Of a stretch of 17,332 bases of DNA, positions 1,960 to 17,332 are shown in pieces. Made by a program: the position numbers and the translations under genes. Where the stretch lies: NCBI GenBank assembly GCA_030668825.1, contig DAOVET010000050.1:1-17332 (forward strand). The letters are read 5' to 3'. Position 1 is the first letter of the stretch; the number at the start of each line of letters is the position of its first letter. Source of the stretch: Candidatus Heimdallarchaeota archaeon (GTDB lineage Archaea > Asgardarchaeota > Heimdallarchaeia > Heimdallarchaeales > Heimdallarchaeaceae). A model generated the notes under the pieces. It was not told the DNA's origin. It was given only the letters and a program-made list of their open reading frames with translations, and did not search any database.

Positions 1960-3357
1960 TTAAACTATCTTTGTCAATAATGGATTTCTCTTCAATGCTA
2001 ATTCTGTTGCTTTGTTAACAAAACTTGCTGGAAATCCTGAATGTTGAAACAGATTTCTAAATAGCATTTCAGTTTGTTCTTTATCATATAGTGAAAATGA
2101 GGTTATAATATAAGACATTGAAACTAATTTTCTCAGTTCATTGAAAATAACAACAGAAGCCTTGTCCAAATCTTGATCTTTAAGTTTGTCCAGAAGAGCA
2201 ATAAAATGATTGCTCTCTTTATGTCCTTTAGTCTCTCCTTCAATTAGATTGACTATGGTTGCTTCTTCTGGTATCTTTTCTGAAGAGTTTAGTTTCTCAA
2301 ATTGAGTTAATGACATTCCAAACAGACCAGTATCCAGGTTAACTTCATCTATTTCGTCATCCATCCATCGGATTATTTCTGAAGCAATATGTTGATTAAA
2401 AATTGAAAGGGTGTCAATTACCAACCTAGAAGTTAATTTATCACCGACTATTATTACATTTTCTCCAGTGATAATAGGGTATAGAATTGAATCAAGTTTA
2501 CCCCCTATTGCATTTTTCAGAAAAGCTAGTGACAAATCTTCTATATCAACTGTAGAGAAATGATTTCCTGGATCTTCAATGTTTTGAATAATATCTAGAA
2601 TTTCAAGCATTTCTAATTGATTATCTTGTTCTGAAATTATCTTTAATTTTTCTTGGATTAGAGGAAAAATTCTGAAAGCTATATAGTCTAGTTCTCGTGG
2701 AAATCTTAGAATCCCTAGAATTGTTTGTGGTCCTTGTGCGTTAACGATTACTAAAGCTGAGTATTTCTTTTCAGGTGTTAATAACAGAATCCCTGATAAT
2801 TCTCCTTCGAATTCCACATTAAGATTATATTTTTTTAACATATCTAGTATCTCATTTGCATCTTCCTTCTTACCTACAGTTTCGATAATTTCAATATCAG
2901 TTTCATCAAATTTGACCAAACTAAATAAAAGGGGTTCAGAACTTATTAGAGGATTCTTCGCAAAGAAAAGTGGGAGATTGGACATATCATGTAGTGTATG
3001 TTCCAAAATTAAAGCTGATTCTCCTTCAGAAAGGAGATCAGGATCTCTCTCTGAAAGCAATGGTTCTGCACTAATCCGAATTTGTTCAATAATTTGAGCA
3101 AGTTGCCTATCAGAAAAAAGTGTTTCTTCAACTTTAGTTTCAATAATAATTATAAAATCGTAAATTTGAACAAATGAAATGTTTTTATCGTGATATGAAA
3201 TTGATTGAAGCTCTTGTCTATGAACTTCTTTTGCAAATGTTATGATTGCACTAATAAGGCTAGAAGCTAAGATGTGTTGCATTTCTGTAAGAATCTCTGG
3301 TTTGGAAGCCAACAATATTCCAGAAGATGTAACTAATGATAGTTGAAGGCTTCGCAT
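1960..3357 (-). CDS. Longin-like + DENN-like domain protein, paralog A
   Basis: N-terminus LSLVTSSGILL...LASSLISAIITFAKEV...LQSISYHDKNISFVQIYDFIIIIE fits the longin beta-beta-alpha-beta-beta-beta-alpha pattern. LDSILYPIITGENVIIVGDKLTSRLVIDTLSIF resembles the cDENN core. Start moved from TTG 3363 to ATG 3357 because MRSLQLSLV aligns with MFNLKISLV of the paralog. Domain calls are by eye. Confidence 0.65.
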   Translation of the reverse strand: MRSLQLSLVTSSGILLASKPEILTEMQHILASSLISAIITFAKEVHRQELQSISYHDKNISFVQIYDFIIIIETKVEETLFSDRQLAQIIEQIRISAEPLLSERDPDLLSEGESALILEHTLHDMSNLPLFFAKNPLISSEPLLFSLVKFDETDIEIIETVGKKEDANEILDMLKKYNLNVEFEGELSGILLLTPEKKYSALVIVNAQGPQTILGILRFPRELDYIAFRIFPLIQEKLKIISEQDNQLEMLEILDIIQNIEDPGNHFSTVDIEDLSLAFLKNAIGGKLDSILYPIITGENVIIVGDKLTSRLVIDTLSIFNQHIASEIIRWMDDEIDEVNLDTGLFGMSLTQFEKLNSSEKIPEEATIVNLIEGETKGHKESNHFIALLDKLKDQDLDKASVVIFNELRKLVSMSYIITSFSLYDKEQTEMLFRNLFQHSGFPASFVNKATELALKRNPLLTKIV

Positions 3358-3381
3358 ACTCAAACATGTGTTTATATCCTT

Positions 3382-3394
3382 TAAGTAAATTTCT
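3382..3394 (-). promoter_or_regulatory. Putative BRE/TATA element AGAAATTTACTTA of paralog A
   Basis: An identical 13-mer occurs at 5642-5654. Here it ends 25 nt before the ATG at 3357, archaeal TATA spacing for a leaderless or short-leader mRNA. Confidence 0.6.
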
Positions 3395-3439
3395 TTAGTG
3401 GAAAAGCAATATTAGTCTAAAAGATAAAAAGGTGTCTAG

Positions 3440-4198
3440 ATGAAAAAAGAAGTACTTCATTTTCAAGAACTGACAAATAAAGCATGGAAGGCTAGAGATT
3501 CAGTGCTCTATAAAGGATGGATAGTGAGATTGTCAGAAGGAGTTACTAAGAGAGCAAATAGTGTTTTACCTCTAGCATATTCTGGGACTGATCTTGAACA
3601 TGATATTGCAGCTGTAGAGAAGTTATATAATAATAACAATTTACCTCTTATCTTCCAGATTCCAGACTATTATGAACCTAGTAATCTGACAGAAACACTT
3701 CTAGATAAGGGGTTCAGAATGATAGATGAAACAATTGTTATGGCAATGGCAATAGAACAACTGAATTATGAAGCTTCTATGAACAGTTATGATTATTTAA
3801 TAGAAGAGAACGTAAATGAAAATTGGTTTCAATCATTGTATAATCTTACAAAAATGGATTCTACTAAATTAGAGGGGTTCAGAAGAATAATTTCTAGAAC
3901 ATCTAACCAAAAAATAACTTGCTCAGTGCTCAGAGATGATTTGATTATAGGTATTGTATTAGGTTTAATCGACAATGAATATATTGGCATATATGATTTA
4001 AATGTTCATTCAAATTATCGAAGGAAGCATGTAGGAGAATTTATTATGCGGAAGATGCTATCTTATGCTCAAATAAACAATTTGAAAACTATGTACTTGC
4101 AAGTTGAAGCTAAAAACACACCTGCAATTTTTTTATACAATAAATTAAATTTCAGAGAAAAGTACAGATATAGATATTTTGTTAAAAAAGAAGAATAG
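3440..4198 (+). CDS. GNAT family N-acetyltransferase (two-domain type)
   Basis: N-terminal GWIVRLSEGVTKRANSV signature, acetyl-CoA motif A VHSNYRRKHVG and C-terminal YLQVEAKNTPAIFLYNKLNF. AAGGTG RBS-like sequence upstream. Confidence 0.9.
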   Translation: MKKEVLHFQELTNKAWKARDSVLYKGWIVRLSEGVTKRANSVLPLAYSGTDLEHDIAAVEKLYNNNNLPLIFQIPDYYEPSNLTETLLDKGFRMIDETIVMAMAIEQLNYEASMNSYDYLIEENVNENWFQSLYNLTKMDSTKLEGFRRIISRTSNQKITCSVLRDDLIIGIVLGLIDNEYIGIYDLNVHSNYRRKHVGEFIMRKMLSYAQINNLKTMYLQVEAKNTPAIFLYNKLNFREKYRYRYFVKKEE

Positions 4199-4209
4199 AA
4201 AAAATGTCT

Positions 4210-5616
4210 TTAGGTTAAGTAATCTAGTAGAGGATTCCTTTGTACTGCTAACTTTAACGCTTTTTTGAAGAAGCTTGAAGCATAACCTTTTGCTGAAGAA
4301 ATATCTTTTAATCTAGCTTTAGCTTTTTCTTCATCTAGTAATGCTAGAGCTGTTAAATCCAATGTTAAATCAACTAATTTTTCCAACTCATAAACTATTT
4401 TAGTAACTACTTCAGCAATAGACAGTTTCTTAATTGTATCAAATAATTTTTTGAAATGATTACTTGACTTTTCTCCTGTAACCTTAGTTGTCTCTAAATT
4501 GATATTGGTATCTTTTTCAGAGATTAGCTCCTTCTCAACAAATTTTCTGTAGACTAATGATGACATACCGCAAAATCTTGCCTGAAGGTCGCATTTACCA
4601 ATTTTTGTTATGTCCTCTTCTGTAGTCCAGAGGCTGACAAATGTCTGTAAATGTTGAGTAAATAGAGACATTGAATCAATAACTAGCTTAACAGTAGGTT
4701 TATCTCCAATTACATAAACTGGTTTCCCTATAATAGCTGAGTAAATTGCTTTGTCAAGATTACGACTTACAGTTCTATCTAAGAAAGTTGGTGAAAGATC
4801 TTCCATAATGATTTTTGATAACCTATTTCCAAGATCTTCAGTTGCCATAATTTTATGAAGAATCTCTTCCATACTGAAGTTTTTCTTTTTATCATTCATT
4901 GAAGTAAGATGATTGTTCATAATATCAAATAATCTAAAAAGAACTAGATTCAGACTTTGAGGAAATTTTAGAATTCCAACTCTAGATTTTTTTCCATTGG
5001 TATCAATAATGGTGTAAGTTAAACTTTTTTCACTTTCTAATAAAGTTAGAATTCCTTCCATGTTTCCTTGAAATTTCTCGTTAGCTTCAAGAGAATCTAT
5101 CATCTTTGCTATTAAAGGAATATGTGATCCTGAACCCACTTGATCCTTTATCTTCCAACCTTTGTCGGAATGAACTAGAGTGAAATATGCAATTTCTGCT
5201 GATTTCAAAGGTCGTTCTGAAATTGAGATATCTAACAATTGAATATTTTTCAAACATCTATCTAAGATTATTGATGCTTCTCCTTCTGTAATCGTATCGG
5301 GGTCAGCTACCTCTAGTAATGGACTAGTACATGTTCTTAATTTCTCAAGCAATTGTTTTAAAATTTCTTCAGTTAGAGTGGATTCTTCATCTATTGTTTC
5401 AAGAATTAAAACAAAATCATGAACTCTTATGAAAGAAACAGTTCTATCATGATAAGATATCGATTGCAATTCTCTGTGGTGTACTTCTTTTGAGAATGAG
5501 ATTAAAGCAGTGATTAAACCTGTTGCTAAGATTTGCCTAGTGTCGTCTACATCCTCTGGTTTAGAAGCTAACAGTATTCCAGTCGAAGTTACAAGTGATA
5601 TCTTTAAGTTAAACAT
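4210..5616 (-). CDS. Longin-like + DENN-like domain protein, paralog B
   Basis: Full-length collinear paralog of 1960-3357 (SLVTSTGILLASKPE, KEVHHRELQSISYHD, EGEA, GILKFP, EDLS, IYSAIIGKPVYVIGDKPTVKLVIDSMSLF, SNHF, RNPLL). Confidence 0.65.
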   Translation of the reverse strand: MFNLKISLVTSTGILLASKPEDVDDTRQILATGLITALISFSKEVHHRELQSISYHDRTVSFIRVHDFVLILETIDEESTLTEEILKQLLEKLRTCTSPLLEVADPDTITEGEASIILDRCLKNIQLLDISISERPLKSAEIAYFTLVHSDKGWKIKDQVGSGSHIPLIAKMIDSLEANEKFQGNMEGILTLLESEKSLTYTIIDTNGKKSRVGILKFPQSLNLVLFRLFDIMNNHLTSMNDKKKNFSMEEILHKIMATEDLGNRLSKIIMEDLSPTFLDRTVSRNLDKAIYSAIIGKPVYVIGDKPTVKLVIDSMSLFTQHLQTFVSLWTTEEDITKIGKCDLQARFCGMSSLVYRKFVEKELISEKDTNINLETTKVTGEKSSNHFKKLFDTIKKLSIAEVVTKIVYELEKLVDLTLDLTALALLDEEKAKARLKDISSAKGYASSFFKKALKLAVQRNPLLDYLT

Positions 5617-5641
5617 CTAAATAATTCAAATAAGAGCAATA

Positions 5642-5654
5642 TAAGTAAATTTCT
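5642..5654 (-). promoter_or_regulatory. Putative BRE/TATA element AGAAATTTACTTA of paralog B
   Basis: Same 13-mer as 3382-3394, 26 nt before the ATG at 5616. Confidence 0.6.
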
Positions 5655-5907
5655 CTTGGGCGATTTTGATAAGAACAAAAGAATAGTTATAGAAAAGAGT
5701 GATTAAAAATCAACAATGAAAAGAAACTAACACCGTAAAAATTGTTTGTAAGCTTTTTATCAGCAAGTTTCTTCATTATATTCAACTTATTGATTTACTT
5801 GAGTAAAATGATAAATTTTGTTGCTTCATTATTACTATTAGTAGAATCTGGAATCGATTTATTATTCATGAAGTGGTTAAAGATTGAAACCAATCAGTTT
5901 AGTATAC

Positions 5908-5968
5908 TTTTATAAATTCCTCAATGATTCTTACATCAATTCAAAATAAATTTCAACCAAAAAGGTGA
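5908..5968 (+). promoter_or_regulatory. Putative TATA box (TTTTATAAA, 5908-5916) and Shine-Dalgarno (AGGTGA, 5963-5968) of tldD
   Basis: Canonical archaeal TATA-like run. AGGTGA is 6 nt before the TTG start at 5975. Confidence 0.5.
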
Positions 5969-5974
5969 AAAAAA

Positions 5975-7390
5975 TTGGAGAAAGATTATGTCTTAGATCT
6001 TTTACATAAAGCAGTAGATCATGGTCATAAACTTGGAGCTGATTTTGTTGAAGCAAGGTATGATGATTTGACTCTAACAACTATTAATTATACAAATGAA
6101 CAAGTCAAAGAATCTTCCACAAAGCAACGTAGAGGAATAGGAATTATGACCTACATTAATGGGTCACCTGGTTATTCTTTTACACCAATACTAGAAGCTG
6201 ATGCTTTAAAGGAAACAACAAGAAGAGCTTTAGGAATAGCTAAATCTACTGAATCCCTATTAACATTCAAGCATAAATATACAGATAGACCTACCATTAA
6301 GGATTCTATTGAATATAAAGTAAAAATACATCCAAAGGATGTCGAATTTGAAGAAAAACTAGAAATGTTAAAACGAGGAGTAGCTTGTGCAAAAGAACAA
6401 GTTGATACCCAATCTACTATTGGATTATGGGGAGAACTCTGGGGAAATAAATTGTTTGTTAACTCAGAACAATCCGAAATCTACTGGACACCTCTTTTGT
6501 TTGATTTGAGATTTGTTGCAATAGCAATGACTGAAACAACTCAAGCAAGAGGATTTGATGGAGAAGGACAATCACAAGGGATGGAATTTTTCAAACTAAA
6601 AGGAAAAGATCCTGAAACTATTGGTACTAATGCTGGAAAATACTGCAAAGAACAAACTGAAGCAGTTGCAGCACCGGGTGGAAAACAAAGAGCACTTGTA
6701 GGACCAAAAATGGCTGGTGTTTTAGCTCATGAAAGTTTTGGTCACTTGTCAGAATCAGACTTTGTTATTACAGGAATGTCCCCCATTTCAGACAGAGTTG
6801 GAGAACAGCTAGGAAGCGAACATGCTACCATTATTGATGAGGGTATCTCTGAATATGGAGGATTCTTCTTACCTTATGATGATCAAGGTACTAAAACAGG
6901 AAAGACTGTTTTGATGGACAAAGGAATGCTTGTAGGATATCTTCACGATAGAAGTACGGCAAACAAGATGAACACTGAAACAACAGGTAATAGTAGGGCA
7001 ATTACATTCATGTACCCAAGTATCCCAAGGATGAAAAATACATACTTCAAACCAGGAAATCTTAGTATTGAAGAATCAGTTGAAATGGTTGGTGACGGTA
7101 TCTATGCAATTGGTACATCTGGCGGTCAAGCTGGCTTAGATGGAGCGTTCTTATTCAAATGCAGCAGAGGCTTCCTAATAGAAAAAGGAGAAATTACATC
7201 ACCAATAAAAGATGCAGCACTATCTGGTCAAATTTTGGATTTCATCAGCAAAATTAGTGGTGTAGGAAAAGAAATGGATCTCTTTACATCTTACTTTGGA
7301 GGTTGTGGCAAGGGGGGTCAATACCCATTACCAGTTGGACTCGGTGGACCTAGCATTGTTGTCGATGAAGTACTAGTTGGAGGCGAATAA
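5975..7390 (+). CDS. tldD: TldD metalloprotease (TldD/PmbA family, catalytic subunit)
   Basis: HESFGHLSE (HExxxH) metal motif, YDDQG, IPRMKNTY and GCGKGGQ..PVGLGGP C-terminal motif. TTG start with AGGTGA RBS. Confidence 0.93.
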   Translation: MEKDYVLDLLHKAVDHGHKLGADFVEARYDDLTLTTINYTNEQVKESSTKQRRGIGIMTYINGSPGYSFTPILEADALKETTRRALGIAKSTESLLTFKHKYTDRPTIKDSIEYKVKIHPKDVEFEEKLEMLKRGVACAKEQVDTQSTIGLWGELWGNKLFVNSEQSEIYWTPLLFDLRFVAIAMTETTQARGFDGEGQSQGMEFFKLKGKDPETIGTNAGKYCKEQTEAVAAPGGKQRALVGPKMAGVLAHESFGHLSESDFVITGMSPISDRVGEQLGSEHATIIDEGISEYGGFFLPYDDQGTKTGKTVLMDKGMLVGYLHDRSTANKMNTETTGNSRAITFMYPSIPRMKNTYFKPGNLSIEESVEMVGDGIYAIGTSGGQAGLDGAFLFKCSRGFLIEKGEITSPIKDAALSGQILDFISKISGVGKEMDLFTSYFGGCGKGGQYPLPVGLGGPSIVVDEVLVGGE

Positions 7391-7391
7391 A

Positions 7392-8759
7392 ATGGTACTA
7401 GAAAAATTACGTTCTGAGATACTGGAAGTAGCTGATTTAGCTCTAAAGTATGCAAAAGATATGAGTATTCAAACAGCTGAAGCTTATATCATCAAGAATT
7501 CTCTAACCGAAGTTAAATATTCCAAAGGAAAAACTGAATGCCGAGACGGTATGCTTCAAGGAATTGGCATCCGTGTTGCTGAAGGTAAAAAAGTTGGCTT
7601 TGCCACTTGTGCTGGATTTGCACCTGATTCCATTAAATCGACTTTGGCTAATGCGCATAAGATTGCTAAAAACTGTCCTGAAGATCCTCGATTTTCTGGT
7701 TTTATTTCTGAAAGTAAACCTGGAAAAGAAGGAATTCTAGACACAAATATAACTGAACTTGACTCTGAAACTCTTGTTGGACATTTAGCTGGTTTAGTTA
7801 AAGAAACAGATATTGACGATCAAAGGTTAGTTGGTGCAGATATCGAAGTGGGCACTCAATGGGGTGGTTTCGCTGTAGCAACAACTGAAGGCTGTCTTGT
7901 CTCCTCTCTTAATACTGCACATTATGGTACAGTGTACTCTGTCGCAATGGGTCAAGGAGAACGCTCAACAGCTTTTGACTTCAAAGTTGGTAGAACTATA
8001 CAAGAATTAAGTGGATTAGGAACTAATGCTATCAACAAAGCATTCAAACACTTGGGTTCAAAACCTCTCGGAGAATCTCTTAAAATTCCTACAATCTGGG
8101 AACCCTTAACTGCTTCAATGTTATTAAGTACAACTTTTCAAGTAGGACTTGATGGTGGTACTGTTGTTGAAAAACAAAATCCTTTGATGCATAAAATGAA
8201 TGAACAAATTGCTACCAAAGATTTCCAATTGAATGATGATGGTACTATTCCAACAAAGATTTCTTCAGAGGCTGTTGATGCTGAGGGGACAACTATAGGT
8301 AAGACTGAAATCGTAAAAGATGGTGTTCTAAAGAGCTTTCTATTTGACAATTTCTATGGGCCAATTTTCGGAACCAAAAGTACTGGAAATGCTCAAAGAG
8401 ATGAACCAACACGTTATGAAAATATACCTTCCATAGCACCTAACAAACTTGTTCTACAACCTGGTACTAAAAACAAAGACGAACAAATTGCAGCTTATGA
8501 TAAAGCTATTTTCATTGAAGGTTTTCCAATGGGTATGGGACATTCAAATATGATTACAGGAGATTTCTCTATAACTGCAACTAATGCATATTTAGTTGAG
8601 AAAGGAGAGATTGTTCATCCTCTTAAACCAGTAAGTATTGCAGGTAACTTCTTTGAATCACTAATAAAAATTCAACATATCGGTTCAGATCCTGTTGATT
8701 TGCCCTTTCCATTAGAAAGTTCTACTTTGACAATAGATGATCACACTGTAAGTGGTTAA
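7392..8759 (+). CDS. pmbA: PmbA/TldE protein (non-catalytic partner of TldD)
   Basis: GIGIRV, DAEG, STGNAQR, ITGDFS and PVSIAGN motifs, no HExxH. ATG at 7392 follows the tldD stop with GGAGG upstream, preferred over TTG 7377. Confidence 0.9.
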   Translation: MVLEKLRSEILEVADLALKYAKDMSIQTAEAYIIKNSLTEVKYSKGKTECRDGMLQGIGIRVAEGKKVGFATCAGFAPDSIKSTLANAHKIAKNCPEDPRFSGFISESKPGKEGILDTNITELDSETLVGHLAGLVKETDIDDQRLVGADIEVGTQWGGFAVATTEGCLVSSLNTAHYGTVYSVAMGQGERSTAFDFKVGRTIQELSGLGTNAINKAFKHLGSKPLGESLKIPTIWEPLTASMLLSTTFQVGLDGGTVVEKQNPLMHKMNEQIATKDFQLNDDGTIPTKISSEAVDAEGTTIGKTEIVKDGVLKSFLFDNFYGPIFGTKSTGNAQRDEPTRYENIPSIAPNKLVLQPGTKNKDEQIAAYDKAIFIEGFPMGMGHSNMITGDFSITATNAYLVEKGEIVHPLKPVSIAGNFFESLIKIQHIGSDPVDLPFPLESSTLTIDDHTVSG

Positions 8760-8760
8760 A

Positions 8761-8780
8761 TCTCCACTTCTTCTTTTTTT
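8761..8780 (+). terminator. Pyrimidine/oligo-T tract, putative archaeal terminator
   Basis: TCTCCACTTCTTCTTTTTTT immediately after the pmbA stop. Confidence 0.45.
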
Positions 8781-8949
8781 ACTTAAATCTAAAATTTTAT
8801 GAAAACTCTATTCCAAAAATGAAATAAATTATCATGATTGTGAAACTAAGTGCATCATTACTTTTGAGTAATGTTTTAATAGTGTCACTTTTCAATTTAC
8901 GCACTTAAATCTACAATTAACTAGATCAAGAAAATAGAAGAGGTTACTA

Positions 8950-9675
8950 ATGAAAGTAAAAACTATAGTTTTTGTATTTATTGTATGTTTCTCTTACTCA
9001 ATACTTGCAAATGCTGAAACAACTACAACTGATCTATTTACCGATTCTGATACATTACCTTCTGGATATTTTGTTCTATATACTAGAACAATATCTCAAT
9101 CCTCAACAACTGTTCGAGTTACTGTTACTTCTTCGGATAATGTAGATGTAGCAATATGTGGAGGTGGAGATTTTGAAGAATGGAACGATGGAGGATCTGA
9201 ACCTTATTGGCATGCATATAGTTCAGATGTAACATCTACTACTATTACAGAAATATTAAATTCAGGAAGTTATGATTTTGTAATTATCAATTTCGGTTTA
9301 TCAACTGTTTCCTATACAATTTCTGCTACTCAAAGTTATGAAGTTGGGGGTTCTGGCCTAGAACCTGGAGACTGGATTTATGGTCTAATTGGTCTAGGTG
9401 TTCTTGGAATTGTAATTGGTGCTATTGTTTTCAGAAGAAGACGAAGACAGCAGATGCAAACTGAAACAGGATATTACCCACAGCAACAACCGTATCAACC
9501 ACAAAGAACATACGAACCACAACAAACATATCAAACATATCAAACATATCAATCAGCAGAGCAGCCTCCTTCTGCTTTTAGTCAAACTCCACAAGGGCTA
9601 AAAGTATGCCCAAATTGCGGGTTTAATGAAGATTTAGATGCTAAGTTTTGTACATCTTGCGGTAGTAAGCTATAG
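8950..9675 (+). CDS. Single-pass membrane protein with extracellular beta-rich domain and C-terminal zinc ribbon
   Basis: Signal peptide ending ILANA, Ser/Thr-rich beta-strand domain, TM helix WIYGLIGLGVLGIVIGAIVF, RRRRR stop-transfer, Q/P/Y/T linker and CPNCG-x9-CTSCG zinc ribbon. Confidence 0.85.
   Translation: MKVKTIVFVFIVCFSYSILANAETTTTDLFTDSDTLPSGYFVLYTRTISQSSTTVRVTVTSSDNVDVAICGGGDFEEWNDGGSEPYWHAYSSDVTSTTITEILNSGSYDFVIINFGLSTVSYTISATQSYEVGGSGLEPGDWIYGLIGLGVLGIVIGAIVFRRRRRQQMQTETGYYPQQQPYQPQRTYEPQQTYQTYQTYQSAEQPPSAFSQTPQGLKVCPNCGFNEDLDAKFCTSCGSKL
9523..9552 (+). repeat. Perfect 9-bp coding tandem repeat (CAAACATAT x3 + CAA) encoding QTY-QTY-QTY-Q
   Basis: Read directly from the sequence at 9523-9552. 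Confidence 0.9.
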
Positions 9676-9690
9676 AATTCTCATAACTTA

Positions 9691-9704
9691 CATTCTTTTT
9701 TTCT
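9691..9704 (+). terminator. Oligo-T tract, putative terminator
   Basis: CATTCTTTTTTTCT 15 nt after the stop at 9675. Confidence 0.35.
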
Positions 9705-10034
9705 ATACAAAATTGTCTTTAAAGATTAGGGACTACTTTTGTAAAGAGATAAAGGAAGATTGTTGTTTGTTTTTAATCTTTGTTAATTAATAAAGTAGTT
9801 TTTCGATACTGCCAACACATAGTAAAAGAAAAGATTAAAATTATTTTATTCTTTTTCAACAAGTTTAGCAGGTGTTGCACATGAGTATCCAAGATAATTT
9901 ACAAAAAGATAACTTACTAAAGATAGAAAAAGTAGAATTCTTGACTATAGATTAGTGCCAGTCTAGCACTCTTTCCTGCTTGGTTTGAAATACGAGCAAT
10001 TAAGAAAAAAGTGAAAATCACTCTTTTATTTTAT

Positions 10035-10838
10035 TTATTCAGTGCAGAAATCTTCTAGAAATCCAGCAGTTTGAAGAAGATCAGCAAATCTTCTTGCGAA
10101 TCTAGTAGCAGGTGCTCCATCAGTGATGATGTGATCTATTTTTAAGGTTATATTCAGAAATTCTCTGTTTTCAAGATTACCATCAATTAAACGAGGTTGT
10201 TCTGATATTCCTCCAACAACTACAATTAGAGGATGATGTCCGAGATTAATTGCCCATCCACCAATTCCTTTTGCAAACATACCAAGAGGATTGAGCTGAA
10301 CTGTTCCATTAAGTTTCTTCAAATAAAAAGGATTTTTACGTAATCGTCTCCAAAAAATGAGATCACGAATAAATCGTGGTAAAGAAAAGAGCATGTTTAA
10401 TTGTTTCTTGGATATGCTAGTATGTATATCATCTTTGTCTGGATATTGAGCTGCTCTTATTTCGTTATGTAGTTCTTGAAGACTCTTTTCGTTAGCCTTT
10501 CTAATGACCAATATGGATGGAAAAGGTTCACCATCAATAATTTTCTCTATTGGAATCGAAAGATCCACATCCTCGAAGAAAATAATTTTTTTACCTTTTT
10601 TGGAAGAATGAACTTCTTTATTTTCACTAACAGCTGTAGCTAAACATTTTGCAACCCAGGATGTAAATGAAAGATTAGCACCAGTTTGACGTTTATAACA
10701 CGCAAATATTTTCCTAGCTTCAGTTACATCTAATTCCATTAATCCAGTCATATAGTATCTATTTCGAGAGAATTCTGTAGCTTCAACTTGCAACTTACGT
10801 TTGAAAGGTTTAGTTGTATAGTTGCCTATATTATCCAT
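10035..10838 (-). CDS. Stand-alone 2-oxoacid dehydrogenase E2-like acyltransferase catalytic domain (CAT-like fold)
   Basis: ELDVT, LSFTSWVAK, IRKANEKSLQEL and catalytic DHIITDG (DHxxxDG). No lipoyl or E3-binding domain. Confidence 0.88.
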   Translation of the reverse strand: MDNIGNYTTKPFKRKLQVEATEFSRNRYYMTGLMELDVTEARKIFACYKRQTGANLSFTSWVAKCLATAVSENKEVHSSKKGKKIIFFEDVDLSIPIEKIIDGEPFPSILVIRKANEKSLQELHNEIRAAQYPDKDDIHTSISKKQLNMLFSLPRFIRDLIFWRRLRKNPFYLKKLNGTVQLNPLGMFAKGIGGWAINLGHHPLIVVVGGISEQPRLIDGNLENREFLNITLKIDHIITDGAPATRFARRFADLLQTAGFLEDFCTE

Positions 10839-10939: not shown

Positions 10940-11275
10940 TTACCACTTTTCTTCAGGTCTTCTTTCAGGGATCATTACAATTTCAGAATCAAAAGCATAA
11001 TTAGGGTCAAAATATAAAGCACAATAACAACGTCCAAATTCATCTATGTCAGGCTGGGCATAATCACAAGGACAAATAATATCTCTGTCAGATTTCATCT
11101 CTTCAAATGAATCTCTGCAAGGACAGTTAAAATACCCTACTCTGTTAAAATAGTCTCTTAATCCTTCAACAAGCATATCTAGTGTTCCATCATCATTTGG
11201 ATGTAGAATCCAATTTCTCTTTTGAGCTACTTGTTTTACGTATTTAGTTACGTCATCTATAGTTTTCTCTCTCAT
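10940..11275 (-). CDS. Ferredoxin:thioredoxin (disulfide) reductase catalytic subunit-like protein
   Basis: CPCR...ICPC...CYC Fe-S/disulfide motif set. ATG at 11275 is preferred over TTG 11284. Lies directly downstream of the glutaredoxin. Confidence 0.9.
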   Translation of the reverse strand: MREKTIDDVTKYVKQVAQKRNWILHPNDDGTLDMLVEGLRDYFNRVGYFNCPCRDSFEEMKSDRDIICPCDYAQPDIDEFGRCYCALYFDPNYAFDSEIVMIPERRPEEKW

Positions 11276-11285
11276 GCATATCAAC

Positions 11286-11600
11286 CTATTCGAGAAACAG
11301 TTCTTTCCAATTTTCTATGTTAAAACCAGCGTAGAATTTATCTCCATCAACGATTAAGAAAGGATATCTAACCATCGCATTGAAATGCTTACTGACAGCT
11401 CTTTTGAATTCTCTTTTGTCTTCAAAAGGAACCTTATCAATGTCTAGATAACTGTAAGTGTAGTTGTTATCTTTCAACCACTTTTTACCCTTTTTACACC
11501 ATTGACAGGTACTTAAAGCAAGCATAATAATTTCATTTGCCTTTTTTTCACCTTCGACAGTTACTACTTCCCCAGGAATTTTGATATCAGCGAAATCCAT
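11286..11600 (-). CDS. Glutaredoxin/NrdH-like redoxin
   Basis: LSTCQWCKK (CxxC), YPFLIVDG cis-Pro motif and GF. Confidence 0.9.
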   Translation of the reverse strand: MDFADIKIPGEVVTVEGEKKANEIIMLALSTCQWCKKGKKWLKDNNYTYSYLDIDKVPFEDKREFKRAVSKHFNAMVRYPFLIVDGDKFYAGFNIENWKELFLE

Positions 11601-11712: not shown

Positions 11713-13611
11713 TTATTCAACATATTTTGAATAGAATTCCTCCCATCCGATCATTTTTACTCCCAGAGCCTCAGCTTGTTCTTGTCTTTTTATTCCTGGT
11801 TTCTCTGCAAGTACCAAATAGTCTAAGGTCTTAGTAACGCCTGAACCCCAAACTATTCCTTTTTTCTCTAACAGTTCTTTTAATTCTATTTTTGTATATT
11901 CTTCTACTTTTCCTGTAACATATATTTTCAATGAAATCACCTGTTGTGTTTCTCTTTGATTAGTGATTTGTGTATCTTTTTTCTCAGGATAGATAATTGT
12001 TAAACCATGTTTGAACAATCTGTTGTATCTTTCAGTTTGTCTGATTCCATTATGGATAAAACTAGCAGTGATATCGGATATGCCTTCTAATTTCATCAAT
12101 TCCTCCATAGAAGCTTCTTTGAGTTCATCAAGATTGTTAAAAGAGTTAGCTAGTTTCTTACCCATGGTTCTTCCCAATTTTTCTATACCCAAACCTGCTA
12201 GAAATGTTCTAAAAGGTAGTTCTCTTGTTTCATCTATAGAAGCTAAGATTTTTGTACCATTTCGCCCTAGCAGATTTACTAATTGGTCTTCTGTAAGAGA
12301 ATAAAGATCAGAATAGTGTTTAACCAAACCTGTATTGTAGAGTTTCTCTAAGCTTTTACCACCAATTCCATCTATACCTGTTTTTTTAATCCAAGAACTA
12401 ATTTCTTGTATATTTCTTCCCCTACATGAATCACCGGTACAGAGAAGATTTACACCAGATTTCACAGTTTTAGATCCACAAGATGGACATTTATTCGGTA
12501 GATTCACTTTTCCTGTAGAATTCTTCGCAGTAACACGGATAATTTTTGGAATTACCTCTCCAGATCTTTCAACATAGACAAAATCACCAGGTTGAGCATC
12601 TAGGTTAATCAGGAAATCAGCATTGTGCATTGTAGCTCGACTGATCACAGCACCTGATACTTCCACAGGTTCTAATTCAGCAACAGGAGTTAAGACAGAT
12701 GTTCTTCCAACTTGCCAAGTTATTGCATTTAGTTTTGTAGATTTTCCTTTACTTTCAAATTTCAAGGCTATTTGCCATCGGGGATGATGATCTGTTGCTC
12801 CAACTTCTTCTCTATCTGAAGCTAAGTTGTATTTGAAAACAACTCCATCAATTTCAAAGTCTAGACTATCTCTTTCATTTTCAACACTTTTGAAATGTTT
12901 AGATACTTCCTCGTAATTTGGTGAATCAATAGTAAGGTAATCAGAAGTTTCAAATCCCCAATTTTTCAAGGTTGAAGCTTTTTCTTCTATAGTTGCTTGG
13001 TCATTCCATCCCAGAAGCTCAAACGTCATGAAATTAAGTGTTCTTCCTTCCATCATGCGTGCATCTTTTTGTTTAGCAGTTCCAGCTGCGAGATTTCTAG
13101 GATTACTGTATTTTTCTCCTTCAGGTAAGGAATCATTTATCCTGTTAAATTCAGAGATTCGCATATAGAGCTCACCTCGAATTTCGACTCTTTCTTCAAA
13201 TGGTATAGTTTTAGGAATCGCTTCTATTTTCAGCACATTTAAGGTTACATCGTCACCTAGAGTACCTGAACCTCTGGTAGCAGCTTGAATCAACTTAGAA
13301 TCTTGGTAAATTATCTTCAGAGACAAACCATCTATTTTGTAACCCATCATTACTGGTCGATTTTCAGACCAAGAAATGATTTTATCTACAGTTTTGGCTT
13401 TTTGGCATGAAAGCATAGATGGATCATGAGTAACATTACCTCCAGAAGGAGCACCAATAATGAACAAAACAGGATTCTCAGGATCGATATCTCGTAACCT
13501 ATCTTCAAGGCTATCATATTCGTCATCAGAAATCTCTGGTTCATCATCGTAATATTTTCTTTTATGATACAGAATCAAGTTTTCTAGTTGTTTCCTTTCC
13601 TCATTCACCAT
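11713..13611 (-). CDS. ligA: NAD-dependent DNA ligase
   Basis: Ia subdomain YYDDEPEISDDEYD, adenylation motif KIDG, ATRG, EIRGE, NPRNLAAG, IDGVVFK, OB domain RATMHN/SGEVIP, C4 zinc finger CPSC..C..C, HhH motifs and C-terminal BRCT. Start is ATG 13611 or GTG 13620. Confidence 0.96.
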   Translation of the reverse strand: MVNEERKQLENLILYHKRKYYDDEPEISDDEYDSLEDRLRDIDPENPVLFIIGAPSGGNVTHDPSMLSCQKAKTVDKIISWSENRPVMMGYKIDGLSLKIIYQDSKLIQAATRGSGTLGDDVTLNVLKIEAIPKTIPFEERVEIRGELYMRISEFNRINDSLPEGEKYSNPRNLAAGTAKQKDARMMEGRTLNFMTFELLGWNDQATIEEKASTLKNWGFETSDYLTIDSPNYEEVSKHFKSVENERDSLDFEIDGVVFKYNLASDREEVGATDHHPRWQIALKFESKGKSTKLNAITWQVGRTSVLTPVAELEPVEVSGAVISRATMHNADFLINLDAQPGDFVYVERSGEVIPKIIRVTAKNSTGKVNLPNKCPSCGSKTVKSGVNLLCTGDSCRGRNIQEISSWIKKTGIDGIGGKSLEKLYNTGLVKHYSDLYSLTEDQLVNLLGRNGTKILASIDETRELPFRTFLAGLGIEKLGRTMGKKLANSFNNLDELKEASMEELMKLEGISDITASFIHNGIRQTERYNRLFKHGLTIIYPEKKDTQITNQRETQQVISLKIYVTGKVEEYTKIELKELLEKKGIVWGSGVTKTLDYLVLAEKPGIKRQEQAEALGVKMIGWEEFYSKYVE

Positions 13612-13830
13612 TTGAATCACTAATCTCTCAAATTTTGATTTAACATATTAAATACTTGTTGGGGGGGCTTACATGAAACTAAAAAAAGTAAATCGAAGTA
13701 ATATTGATTGAAAAACTAGAAATCTATCTACAAAGAAAAGTGTTGGGTCTATCAATCAAAATATTAGCCTTAGTTCAGCTTTTAAGTTTTGCATGTTCCC
13801 TCAAAGAAAATAGTTTCGAATTTCAATAAC

Positions 13831-14515: not shown

Positions 14516-16015
14516 CTATTTGAGATTGATTGAGATAATTTCGTCTATTTCCTTTCTTTTTGCAGTATTCTTTCCGTCAAAAATATCTTTTGCTATTTTA
14601 GCTATTTTATTTTCTGTCTCTTGGTCAAAAACAGGAATTTTCACATTACTCATAATTCGCTGAGTGTATGAGATTCTATGGCCCCTCCTTGCACCAGCAG
14701 AGAGATAATATTCCCTAAAGAATTTACTATTAAGATAGCCTAACAGAAAGAAAGGATTCTTATGCTGTGGAACTAGTGTAAGTACATCACCAGATGGTAA
14801 ATACGGTTCTTCAGCTAGACTAAATCTGTTCTCTGTGCTTCTATCTAAACTTGGAACAAAAAGTTTGGGTTGAGCATGAAAAGATTTCAATTTCTCATAA
14901 TTCCTTAATGCTTGCCAATGAAACCATTTGTTACTAGCAGGGAAATACCTAACTGTCATGCTATCCTTATGCGAGATAAGTTTCTTATGAATAGTAGGAT
15001 AGCTCTTCAGTTCTGCTTCAGAATTGATCCTTTTATCAATCAACAAATAATACTCAAAACCATCTGTCCAATATCCTTGACAATGTTTTGATTTGATAGC
15101 CTTTACTAAAAATTCCTTTTCTTCATCATTCAATAGAGATTTTTCTTCCTCATCTAGAATGAAAGCTTGTTCAAATCCTGAAACCAAACCAACTCCAATC
15201 CAACATACTTCTTTTAAAAGATAGAAGTCAGAGAAGGTCTTTTCAGGATAGGTTGTCCATACTTCGTTTTCATGAGTAAACATCTCTCTTTCGTAGTAAG
15301 TAAAAACCTCATTTTCTTTGCTCTTTGATAACGAATCAACTGCCTTTTTATGGATTGTATTTGGTTTGAAATTTCTTTCTTTTATCCTAAGTATTCTAAT
15401 ATTCCGTTGAGATTCTAAAGATTTCTTAACAAATTTAAAAATAAGAGTTTCAGGATTTTCATCTTCAAATAATCTAGTTTCATCCAAATCTATAATTATT
15501 TCCAGATAACCATTATCAATTATTTTCTCTCTAATCACCTTGGCATAAGTATTAAAGAAAAAACCATATGGGACAATGAAAATTAATTCGCCTCCTTCTT
15601 TCAACAATTCAATAGATTTCAATATGAATGCATAGTAAATATCTGACTCTTTATTTCCTACAATTCTTACAACTTTTGATCTACTAGATCTGGGAAGAGA
15701 ATTATAATGAGTATAAGGAGGATTACCTATTATGAGATCATATTCCTTTAGATTTAGCCAATCCAAGTAATCATCATTGTAGAGTTTAACATTCGGGAAC
15801 TTCTTCAAACAGAATTCATACAAGTTTTTACTAAGTTCAATTCCCTCAATATCTGTAAATCCTGCTTCTTGAAGACCTTTAAGGAAGATTCCCTTACCGC
15901 AGCCTGTATCTAGAATAGATATGTTCTTCTGAATTTTTTTATTTTCTGAAACAAGTGAAATCATCAATTTTGCTATATCCTTAGGTGTTTGAACAAAAGC
16001 TATGGAATCATTCAT
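14516..16015 (-). CDS. Type II-like N6-adenine DNA methyltransferase, gamma class (M.TaqI/Eco57I-like)
   Basis: Motif X (VQTP), motif I ILDTGCGKGIF, motif IV IIGNPPY, DIYYAFI, LLKEGGELIFIVP and a TaqI-C-like C-terminal region (LLGYLNS...IP). Confidence 0.9.
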   Translation of the reverse strand: MNDSIAFVQTPKDIAKLMISLVSENKKIQKNISILDTGCGKGIFLKGLQEAGFTDIEGIELSKNLYEFCLKKFPNVKLYNDDYLDWLNLKEYDLIIGNPPYTHYNSLPRSSRSKVVRIVGNKESDIYYAFILKSIELLKEGGELIFIVPYGFFFNTYAKVIREKIIDNGYLEIIIDLDETRLFEDENPETLIFKFVKKSLESQRNIRILRIKERNFKPNTIHKKAVDSLSKSKENEVFTYYEREMFTHENEVWTTYPEKTFSDFYLLKEVCWIGVGLVSGFEQAFILDEEEKSLLNDEEKEFLVKAIKSKHCQGYWTDGFEYYLLIDKRINSEAELKSYPTIHKKLISHKDSMTVRYFPASNKWFHWQALRNYEKLKSFHAQPKLFVPSLDRSTENRFSLAEEPYLPSGDVLTLVPQHKNPFFLLGYLNSKFFREYYLSAGARRGHRISYTQRIMSNVKIPVFDQETENKIAKIAKDIFDGKNTAKRKEIDEIISINLK

Positions 16016-16327: not shown

Positions 16328-17332
16328 TCACTTTGACAGAATCTCTTTTACTTTTTCAATTGAAATAGCTTCTTTCTTATTATTATCTCTACCAATTATA
16401 GTCGTTGCTTTTAGTAGGGAGTTGATTATAGCTTCTTCAGTTGTTTCTACTACGGCTCTTAGCAAATCTCTGAAAACCTTTATATCTTCATTTACTATTG
16501 TCATGCTCTTAGTCTTTTCTTTATTATCATGGTCGATTTTGTTTTCAGTTGAGAAAACAATTGCAATATCCCCAGAACCATGAGAACCATAACTACCAGT
16601 ATTAGCAAGCCCTAAAGGAACCCTTTTAGCTAATCTTTTCAGTTGTCTAGCACTTAATGGGGCATTAGTAGCAATTACAATTATTATTGAACCATCATCC
16701 TTTTTTGATTCTTCTTCTTTCTCACTTTCCTCAATAAACTTGGTAAAATTATGACCTAAAATTGTCAAATCATTTTTTCTACCAAAATTAGATAATACAA
16801 GAGTTCCTAGAATATATTCTGTTTCTTCATCTTTAATAACTCTAGATGAACTTCCAATGCCTCCCTTAAATCCAAGTGCTGTCATACCTGTTCCTGCGCC
16901 CACAGATCCTTCTTCAAAATCTGAAGAAGCGTTTTTTATCGCATCAAGAACATGTATCTTTTGAACATGTCTTCCTTGAATATCATTCAAATATCCATCA
17001 TGACATTCTCCTACTACAATATTTATTGTAGAAGTTTTTATTCCAATATCAGGATTCTCCTCAAGATGGTAATCTAATAAAGCATCAGTAACTTTGGAAA
17101 TGCTTAGTGTATTAGTCAATCCAATATAGGATTCAATATTTCCAAGCTCCTCAACTTGAACTAAACCAATTGTTTTTCCATACCCATTAAAGACATATGA
17201 ACTCGCTCTAACCTTATCGCGATAGATATTTCCCGAGTGAGGTTTTACTATTGTTACACCTGTTCTAATGGGTCCAAAACCTGGTTTTAATTCACCTTCT
17301 CCAGCAATTATTGTACTATGCCCAACTGTAAC
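16328..17332 (-). CDS. dmpA: P1/S58 family aminopeptidase DmpA-like (5'-truncated by window edge)
   Basis: Frame is open to the window end (VTVGHSTII...RTGVT...NGYGKTIGLVQVEELG). Contains VVGECHDG, EGSVGAGTGM, FKGGIGSSSR, autoproteolytic DG/SII site and HGSGDIAIVFST. Confidence 0.93.
   Translation of the reverse strand, partial: VTVGHSTIIAGEGELKPGFGPIRTGVTIVKPHSGNIYRDKVRASSYVFNGYGKTIGLVQVEELGNIESYIGLTNTLSISKVTDALLDYHLEENPDIGIKTSTINIVVGECHDGYLNDIQGRHVQKIHVLDAIKNASSDFEEGSVGAGTGMTALGFKGGIGSSSRVIKDEETEYILGTLVLSNFGRKNDLTILGHNFTKFIEESEKEEESKKDDGSIIIVIATNAPLSARQLKRLAKRVPLGLANTGSYGSHGSGDIAIVFSTENKIDHDNKEKTKSMTIVNEDIKVFRDLLRAVVETTEEAIINSLLKATTIIGRDNNKKEAISIEKVKEILSK

Follow-up and report, generated by a model that had tools for sequence, protein, structure and literature searches.

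Genes A and B of a 17,332-nt contig from a Heimdall-group Asgard archaeon probably encode the paralogous subunits of a soluble, dimeric longin-DENN regulator of small GTPases, with an Arf-family GTPase as the likely client. Such a system would be a counterpart of FLCN-FNIP and C9orf72-SMCR8. FLCN-FNIP2 and C9orf72-SMCR8 are eukaryotic longin-DENN heterodimers that serve as GTPase-activating proteins (GAPs) for Rag and Arf GTPases, and longin-DENN complexes act on these GTPases at eukaryotic lysosomes. The contig, hereafter the window, was analysed over its complete length and belongs to genome G000 (2.76 Mb, 90.6% complete). Source names on close homologs place the host in Candidatus Heimdallarchaeaceae, in keeping with a preliminary description of the DNA, which had assumed an archaeal host and pointed to the Asgard archaea. 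The predicted fold of the two proteins, their occurrence as a paralog pair and the linkage to an Arf gene in relatives together point to a dimeric small-GTPase regulator.

Both genes are intact open reading frames (ORFs) on the same strand (Table 1). BLASTP aligned their products collinearly over the full length with 175 of 465 residues identical (38%), 5 gaps and an E-value of 5e-104, in agreement with the two collinear paralogs of about 467 residues that had been proposed. The blocks quoted at the time, i.e., SLVTSxGILLASKPE at the N-terminus, RNPLL at the C-terminus and the GDK...LVID motif, are present in both proteins. The TTG start of A is probably two codons early, since the ATG at 3357 aligns with the first residue of B. 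Three domains are predicted, here called LD1, LD2 and DENN, and in 15 same-genome pairs the identity between A and B was 64% in residues 1-60 of LD1, 28% in LD2 and 35% in the DENN domain.

To describe the fold, a model of B was generated with AlphaFold2 (AF2) from a 38-sequence alignment (predicted local distance difference test, pLDDT, 84; predicted template modelling score, pTM, 0.73), and A was placed by its end-to-end alignment to B. The modelling supports a build of longin domain, longin-like domain and DENN domain of the FLCN-SMCR8-DENND1 type for B and, by alignment, for A. LD1 has the element order beta-beta-alpha-beta-beta-beta-alpha-alpha, and in structure comparison with VIA it matched chains of zeta-COP, CCZ1, Sec22b, Fuzzy and the HPS4 complex (BLOC-3) with Z values of 12.9-11.5, 120-130 aligned residues and a root-mean-square deviation (rmsd) of about 3 Å, in keeping with the N-terminal longin domain suggested earlier. 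The Pfam model Intu_longin_1 matched LD1 of B below threshold (E 2.4e-4; 21.7 bits, the cut-off being 23.7), and sub-threshold matches at E < 0.01 were found in 20 of 38 family members for Intu_longin_1 and in 4 of 38 for Fuz_longin_1.

LD2, modelled alone, reached a pLDDT of 86. Its best VIA match was 7o2w_A (Z 8.4; the first 146 residues of that chain, 105 aligned, rmsd 2.9 Å), other matches being the Lokiarchaeal longin 8yqg (Z 8.2) and the Lst4 longin (Z 7.9), and 8yqg was also the best Foldseek match (E 5.5e-4). Because these Z values are middling, the modelled LD2 is assigned with moderate confidence as a second longin-like domain. The models support both domains of the longin plus DENN layout in the preliminary description, which overlooked the putative third domain between them.

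In the model, the DENN domain consists of a beta-alpha-beta-alpha-beta-alpha core followed by five helices. VIA aligned it with DENND1A (6ekk_A; Z 11.8, 176 residues, rmsd 4.7 Å), the folliculin C-terminal domain (3v42_B; Z 11.7, 173 of 199 residues, rmsd 3.2 Å), SMCR8 (6lt0_B; Z 11.6, 194 residues) and DENND1B (Z 11.3), the DENN matches overall spanning 170-194 residues. The motif that had been read by eye as a cDENN core with a helical dDENN behind it forms, in the model, the helix-strand-helix that opens the alpha/beta domain, with the helical domain after it, and the matches to FLCN, SMCR8 and DENND1A/B are of the kind that this reading predicted. When the whole model of B was searched with Foldseek, the top matches (E 5e-7 to 1e-4) were chains of the C9orf72-SMCR8-WDR41-ARF1, BLOC-3, MON1A-CCZ1, DENND1A/B and FLCN structures, the best being 7mge_C of the C9orf72:SMCR8:WDR41-ARF1 complex (E 4.9e-7).

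A side observation concerns residues 21-60 of B (window positions ~5437-5556). This is the most conserved stretch of A and B and the one modelled with the lowest confidence (pLDDT 53-57), which would fit a helix that becomes ordered only upon partner binding.

Sequence comparison connects the family to the SMCR8 and folliculin group. The precomputed label PF27109, which the Atlas names SMCR8_C, was present on 12 of 42 database homologs. A search of 1.84 billion representatives with the family profile returned 99 proteins at E ≤ 1e-3, of which 31 reached E ≤ 1e-30; many of the matches are proteins of ~350-370 residues that align with the DENN part only. These include a short Heimdall longin-DENN family (33 sequences aligned, ~360 residues) that hhalign relates to the A/B family with a probability of 99.7 and an E-value of 6.4e-26. 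The profile of the short family matches SMCR8 chains (E 8e-4), 5 of its 33 members carry Pfam Folliculin_C and 4 carry C9orf72-like, and its consensus has GP near the N-terminus. Concerning a uDENN counterpart, hhalign pairs LD2 with the longin of the short family and HMMER pairs the LD1 helix with that longin. Two short-family genes are present in G000 (Table 1), and an ORF for a 321-residue Arf-family GTPase lies 2.7 kb from one of them, the gene on contig C97. The Pfam models DENN, Folliculin and C9orf72 gave no match to A, B or any of the 38 family members at E < 0.01. Searches of PDB sequences gave no match with B or with the family profile and 17 chance-level matches with A (E ≥ 0.13), and NCBIfam holds no family for A or B.

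The duplication is retained across the genus of the window. Among 31 genomes of the window's family, 26 have a family match, and full-length matches in a sample of 201 genomes from the phylum were restricted to this family, with 19 of 21 genomes, and to its sister family, with 3 of 7. In the window's genus (g1; 25 genomes, all incomplete), 13 genomes have the two paralogs on a single contig, on the same strand and with B ahead of A, three carry both on separate contigs, one is fragmentary, four have only one paralog and four have none. Linkage in related genomes, as the preliminary description had anticipated, is thus accompanied by co-retention. In the tree, the A clade comprises 17 rows, from g1 (support 100/99), and the B clade 16 rows (95/98), and the internal topologies of the two clades mirror each other. 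Rooted on the sister family, the tree gives no definite branching order among the A clade, the B clade, g2 and g5+g4.

A link to a specific GTPase family comes from relatives of the window. In G022 and G019, a BLAST screen of neighbouring ORFs first revealed that a small GTPase is encoded upstream of B, and the Pfam match of this GTPase to Arf (E 8.2e-41 versus 2.6e-15 for Ras) identifies it as an Arf-family member. An ortholog is present in 9 of the 31 family genomes. In eight of the nine, the longin-DENN gene follows on the same strand at a distance of 0.9-1.8 kb; the ninth ortholog is on a contig of 1,860 nt that ends before the position of the longin-DENN gene. The cluster reads, in order, 164-aa protein, Arf GTPase, membrane protein, flavin-reductase-like gene, B, (GNAT acetyltransferase gene), A; the GNAT gene may be no part of the system. 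This order was found in G012, G016, G030, G022, G019, G010 and G028 and as a variant in genus g4, i.e., in eight genomes including G004. The flavin-reductase gene of G022 is a remnant, and in G028 the contig end falls inside B. In g4, the 164-aa protein, the Arf GTPase and the membrane protein are followed by a lone homolog at 22% identity. The genes of the 164-aa protein, the Arf GTPase and the membrane protein are co-directional with the longin-DENN gene, the intergenic gaps of the cluster are short, and the membrane protein (271-277 residues) has about seven hydrophobic segments in a crude scan. In G022, the Arf block is situated between B and TldD.

The 164-aa protein was considered as a possible further longin, and the comparisons gave no support for this: it has no Pfam match, hhalign gave probabilities of 0.1 against the A/B family and 0.9 against the short family, and a PDB profile search returned chance-level matches only. 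The sole pointer to a longin is its Atlas cluster, 19% of whose members carry NPR2, and we do not call the protein a longin.

Several observations weigh against a dimeric regulator acting on Arf GTPases. The first group concerns the pairing of A and B. Their joint complex prediction scored 0.47 (0.47, 0.47 and 0.40 in separate runs; best of three controls 0.00). Among solved complexes, 58 of 80 attain the mark that this score passes, as do 2 of 110 mismatched pairs, and the range from the mark up to 0.60 contains 7 of the 80 solved complexes together with both passing mismatches, so that binding of A to B is weakly supported by the modelling. The runs share at least 84% of contacts with a partner pLDDT of at least 75, and the pass may reflect likeness, since similar complexes have already been solved. 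Furthermore, a gene on the opposite strand splits A from B in the window and in 9 of 11 related loci; A and B are therefore not a single transcript. The earlier term tandem pair holds for strand and linkage and fails for adjacency, because of this intervening GNAT gene. In G023, G010 and G019 the A-B spacing is just 65-230 nt. Finally, genera g2, g4 and g5 carry a single copy, so that members of the family need not form heterodimers. For A and B, the heterodimer proposed from the sequence has weak predicted support.

The same observations favor a different arrangement, in which A and B are both GTPase regulators that do not pair with each other and since their duplication have acted as separate homodimers or monomers with clients of their own. 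The single-copy homologs in g2, g4, g5 and family f2 imply an ancestor that worked without a paralogous partner, and the divergence of LD2 and the DENN domain would be in line with separate functions, as would the weak complex score and the separation of the genes in most genomes. Against this stand the constant order of the linked genes in 13 genomes and the mirrored trees of A and B. Two genomes, G009 and G014, show only an A-type copy, yet both are incomplete (88% and 89%). On balance, we consider independent action of A and B unlikely and prefer the paired regulator.

The second group of adverse observations concerns the client and the chemistry. No Pfam model scored above its cut-off on A or B. 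The window contains no GTPase or roadblock gene within its 17,332 nt. The Arf block is absent from G000, where B is followed after 358 nt by TldD, and tblastn of this 90.6% complete genome found no homolog of the 164-aa, membrane or flavin-reductase protein at E < 1e-8. The nearest relatives of the cluster GTPase in G000 are paralogs that are only 35-39% identical. No remnant of the block was detectable in window positions 5617-5974, and a scan of the neighbors in nine related loci and the window (175 ORFs, 10 of them through Pfam) revealed no conserved GTPase or roadblock neighbor besides the Arf block. Since the block is absent from G000 and the pair is intact, the window's lineage has lost the Arf block yet kept A and B. 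Across the genome, 34 matches to the Ras family and 26 to the Arf family were counted, six of the latter at E ≤ 1.5e-33.

Catalytic signatures were looked for as well. The catalytic arginine of known longin GAPs is R164 in FLCN and R147 in SMCR8. Among 59 sequences, LD1 has no invariant arginine: position 58 is R in 51 and K in 4, with K in the window's A, and at position 64, R or K stands in 32 of the 33 B sequences, with Q in 5 of 8 A sequences. This apparent A/B asymmetry at position 64, read from the alignment, is only a lead. A GP dipeptide before strand 2 occurs in none of the 59 sequences; 58 have G13 with L, I, M, K or V as the next residue, and GP was found only after strand 2 of LD2, in four sequences. 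In addition, Zhu et al. (2025) described two Asgard C9orf72-SMCR8-WDR41 candidates, which may or may not belong to the A/B family, and judged them to lack the Arf-interacting regions.

The absence of a catalytic signature is also what would be expected if the longin and DENN folds served a non-GTPase role, for example as a membrane-associated scaffold or adaptor, with the Arf linkage incidental or lineage-specific. SNAREs, adaptor small subunits and COPI zeta, which are all among the best matches of LD1, likewise contain longin domains, and A and B are also kept by genomes in which the linked Arf ortholog is missing, as it is in 22 of the 31 of the family. However, the matches of the DENN domain are all GTPase regulators, and the linkage to Arf is shared by two genera at 22% identity, with short intergenic gaps in the cluster. 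We therefore regard a role apart from GTPases as improbable. That A and B are tri-longin RabGEF subunits of the Mon1-Ccz1, BLOC-3 or Fuzzy-Inturned type, with a divergent third longin at the C-terminus, is hardly credible: the sub-threshold Intu_longin_1 and Fuz_longin_1 matches and the Foldseek matches to MON1A, CCZ1, BLOC-3 and Fuzzy-Inturned chains (E 1e-6 to 1e-4) would suit it, whereas the strand order of the C-terminal domain is not that of a longin, this domain aligns with DENN domains over 170-194 residues and the sequence links run to SMCR8_C and Folliculin_C.

For the preferred dimeric regulator, a working mechanism can be sketched by analogy with solved eukaryotic complexes. The longin domains of the A and B chains would pair with each other, as would their DENN domains, and the conserved pair of LD1 domains could form the GTPase-binding platform. 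The ancestral client would most likely be the Arf-family GTPase encoded upstream in relatives, with the neighboring multi-pass membrane protein as a possible anchor. In the window's lineage, the probable client of the pair is one of the six strong Arf-family paralogs that remain. As to the activity, we lean slightly to an exchange factor or platform, a role that falls a little short of an even chance; a GAP is a weaker candidate, and a scaffold or effector would account for the remainder. Taken together, heterodimer formation and GTPase regulation by A and B are plausible.

The resemblance to the eukaryotic complexes is partial. As in FLCN-FNIP2 and C9orf72-SMCR8, a longin domain and a C-terminal DENN domain occur in two related subunits, and relatives encode an Arf-family GTPase in the cluster. 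Unlike them, A and B have an extra longin-like domain (three domains in ~467 residues), no GP motif and one copy outside g1, and no WDR41- or Ragulator-like partner was identified for the pair. The tri-longin RabGEFs Mon1-Ccz1, HPS1-HPS4 and Fuzzy-Inturned are likewise paralog heterodimers, and among Pfam models LD1 of B comes nearest, below threshold, to theirs; the third domain of A and B differs from theirs in having DENN instead of longin topology. Among the weaker fold matches was TagF of the bacterial type VI secretion system (9t0n, 6iz8; Foldseek E 3.7e-4 for the whole model, Z 5.3 for LD2). We found no sequence link or shared context between TagF and A/B; these fold matches hint at longin-DENN-like layouts in bacteria too.

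Liu et al. (bioRxiv 10.1101/2020.10.19.343400) have previously reported Asgard DENN proteins and FLCN-like Heimdall proteins, and the available text of that study describes an operon of a LAMTOR1-like roadblock protein, a Rab-like GTPase and a DENN protein as 'conserved in most Asgard archaea'. As far as that text goes, the cluster in the relatives of the window differs from this operon in its Arf-family GTPase, its 164-aa protein of no recognised family and its multi-pass membrane protein, and the full-length A/B family differs in being confined to two families among those searched. LAMTOR1-like roadblock and Rab-like GTPase genes next to A and B were looked for in the window and not found. 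A second study (Traffic 2025; PMC12290439) describes, in the part available, GP-motif longins in Heimdallarchaeia, with the GP placed just before longin strand 2, and asks if Arf-related or Rag GTPases partner Heimdall longins. Those proteins come from the same phylum and have the same kind of domain, and the relatives in the short family share the GP consensus and are homologous to A/B over the DENN part. By the description available there, A and B are set apart by never having P after G13 and by the additional longin-like domain. The three-domain layout, the retained pair and the Arf cluster appear undescribed in the searchable literature text; that text yielded general reports of Asgard DENN and longin proteins only, figures and supplements lie outside such a search, and a prior description is possible. 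Two published studies of Asgard Arf proteins likewise contained no text on operons or gene neighborhoods.

Asgard longin-DENN homologs are known and their clients are not. A conserved cluster in which an Arf GTPase is encoded with a membrane protein and with one or two proteins of the longin-DENN kind names candidates, and genomes that keep the pair without the GTPase block, including G000, provide a natural comparison. This cluster, which is the most useful lead, lies in related genomes rather than in the window. A more far-reaching and rather doubtful proposal is that A/B, the 164-aa protein, the Arf GTPase and the membrane protein represent an archaeal forerunner of a membrane-anchored Arf regulator of the C9orf72-SMCR8 type, in which case heterodimeric longin-DENN control of Arf would predate eukaryotes. 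If so, the domain order, in which a tri-longin-like LD1 precedes a longin-DENN module, would be a surviving connection between the lineages of the tri-longin RabGEFs and of DENN/FLCN.

Table 1. Positions of A, B, their predicted domains and other genes of the window, with the two short-family genes found elsewhere in G000.
Feature	Positions	Strand	Description or basis
Paralog A	1960-3363	-	Intact ORF; 467 aa from TTG 3363, 465 aa from ATG 3357
A, LD1	~2962-3357	-	Placed by alignment to B
A, LD2	~2623-2961	-	Placed by alignment to B
A, DENN domain	~1963-2622	-	Placed by alignment to B
GNAT acetyltransferase gene between A and B	3440-4198	+	252 aa; Pfam Rv0428c_C E 3.4e-19, Acetyltransf_1 E 1.9e-12
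Paralog B	4210-5616	-	Intact ORF, 468 aa; longin / longin-like / DENN protein
B, LD1 (residues 1-132)	5221-5616	-	Predicted longin fold; AF2 model and VIA
B, LD2 (residues ~133-245)	4882-5220	-	Putative second longin-like domain; separate AF2 model, VIA and Foldseek
B, DENN domain (residues ~246-468)	4213-4881	-	Predicted cDENN alpha/beta core, then helical dDENN; VIA
Intergenic gap between B and TldD	5617-5974		Relatives carry the Arf block at the equivalent site
TldD/PmbA metallopeptidase pair	5975-8759	+	
Ferredoxin-thioredoxin-reductase catalytic-chain-like and glutaredoxin-like genes	10940-11600	-	
NAD-dependent DNA ligase	11713-13620	-	
Eco57I/N6-type DNA methylase	14516-16015	-	
Peptidase S58 (DmpA-like) gene	16328-17332	-	
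Short-family gene, 364 aa	C119:945-2036	+	Hidden Markov model (HMM) E 2.9e-43
Short-family gene, 362 aa	C97:31535-32620	-	HMM E 2.1e-37

The GNAT gene is convergent with B and divergent from A, with a gap of 76 nt to A, and its counterparts in the related loci are 44-92% identical. Its product has a weak NCBIfam match, under the cut-off, to the CG3035 N-acetylglutamate synthase family. A 480-aa ORF without a Pfam family separates B from A in G013 and G027 and has the same orientation as they have; in G013 the ORF is at positions 7700-9142 of locus L021, and in G027 the ORFs at 8599-10041 and 7582-8514 of locus L022 include an IS-type integrase (rve).

On the other side of B, the adjoining TldD/PmbA pair is part of a neighborhood that is conserved within the genus. 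Further along, the ferredoxin-thioredoxin-reductase catalytic-chain-like and glutaredoxin-like genes adjoin an ORF with a 2-oxoacid dehydrogenase acyltransferase domain. The DNA ligase is of the bacterial type, in an Asgard genome, and has the LigA adenylation, OB, zinc finger, HhH and BRCT domains. The DNA methylase carries a TaqI-like specificity domain, and the DmpA-like peptidase gene extends past the contig end.

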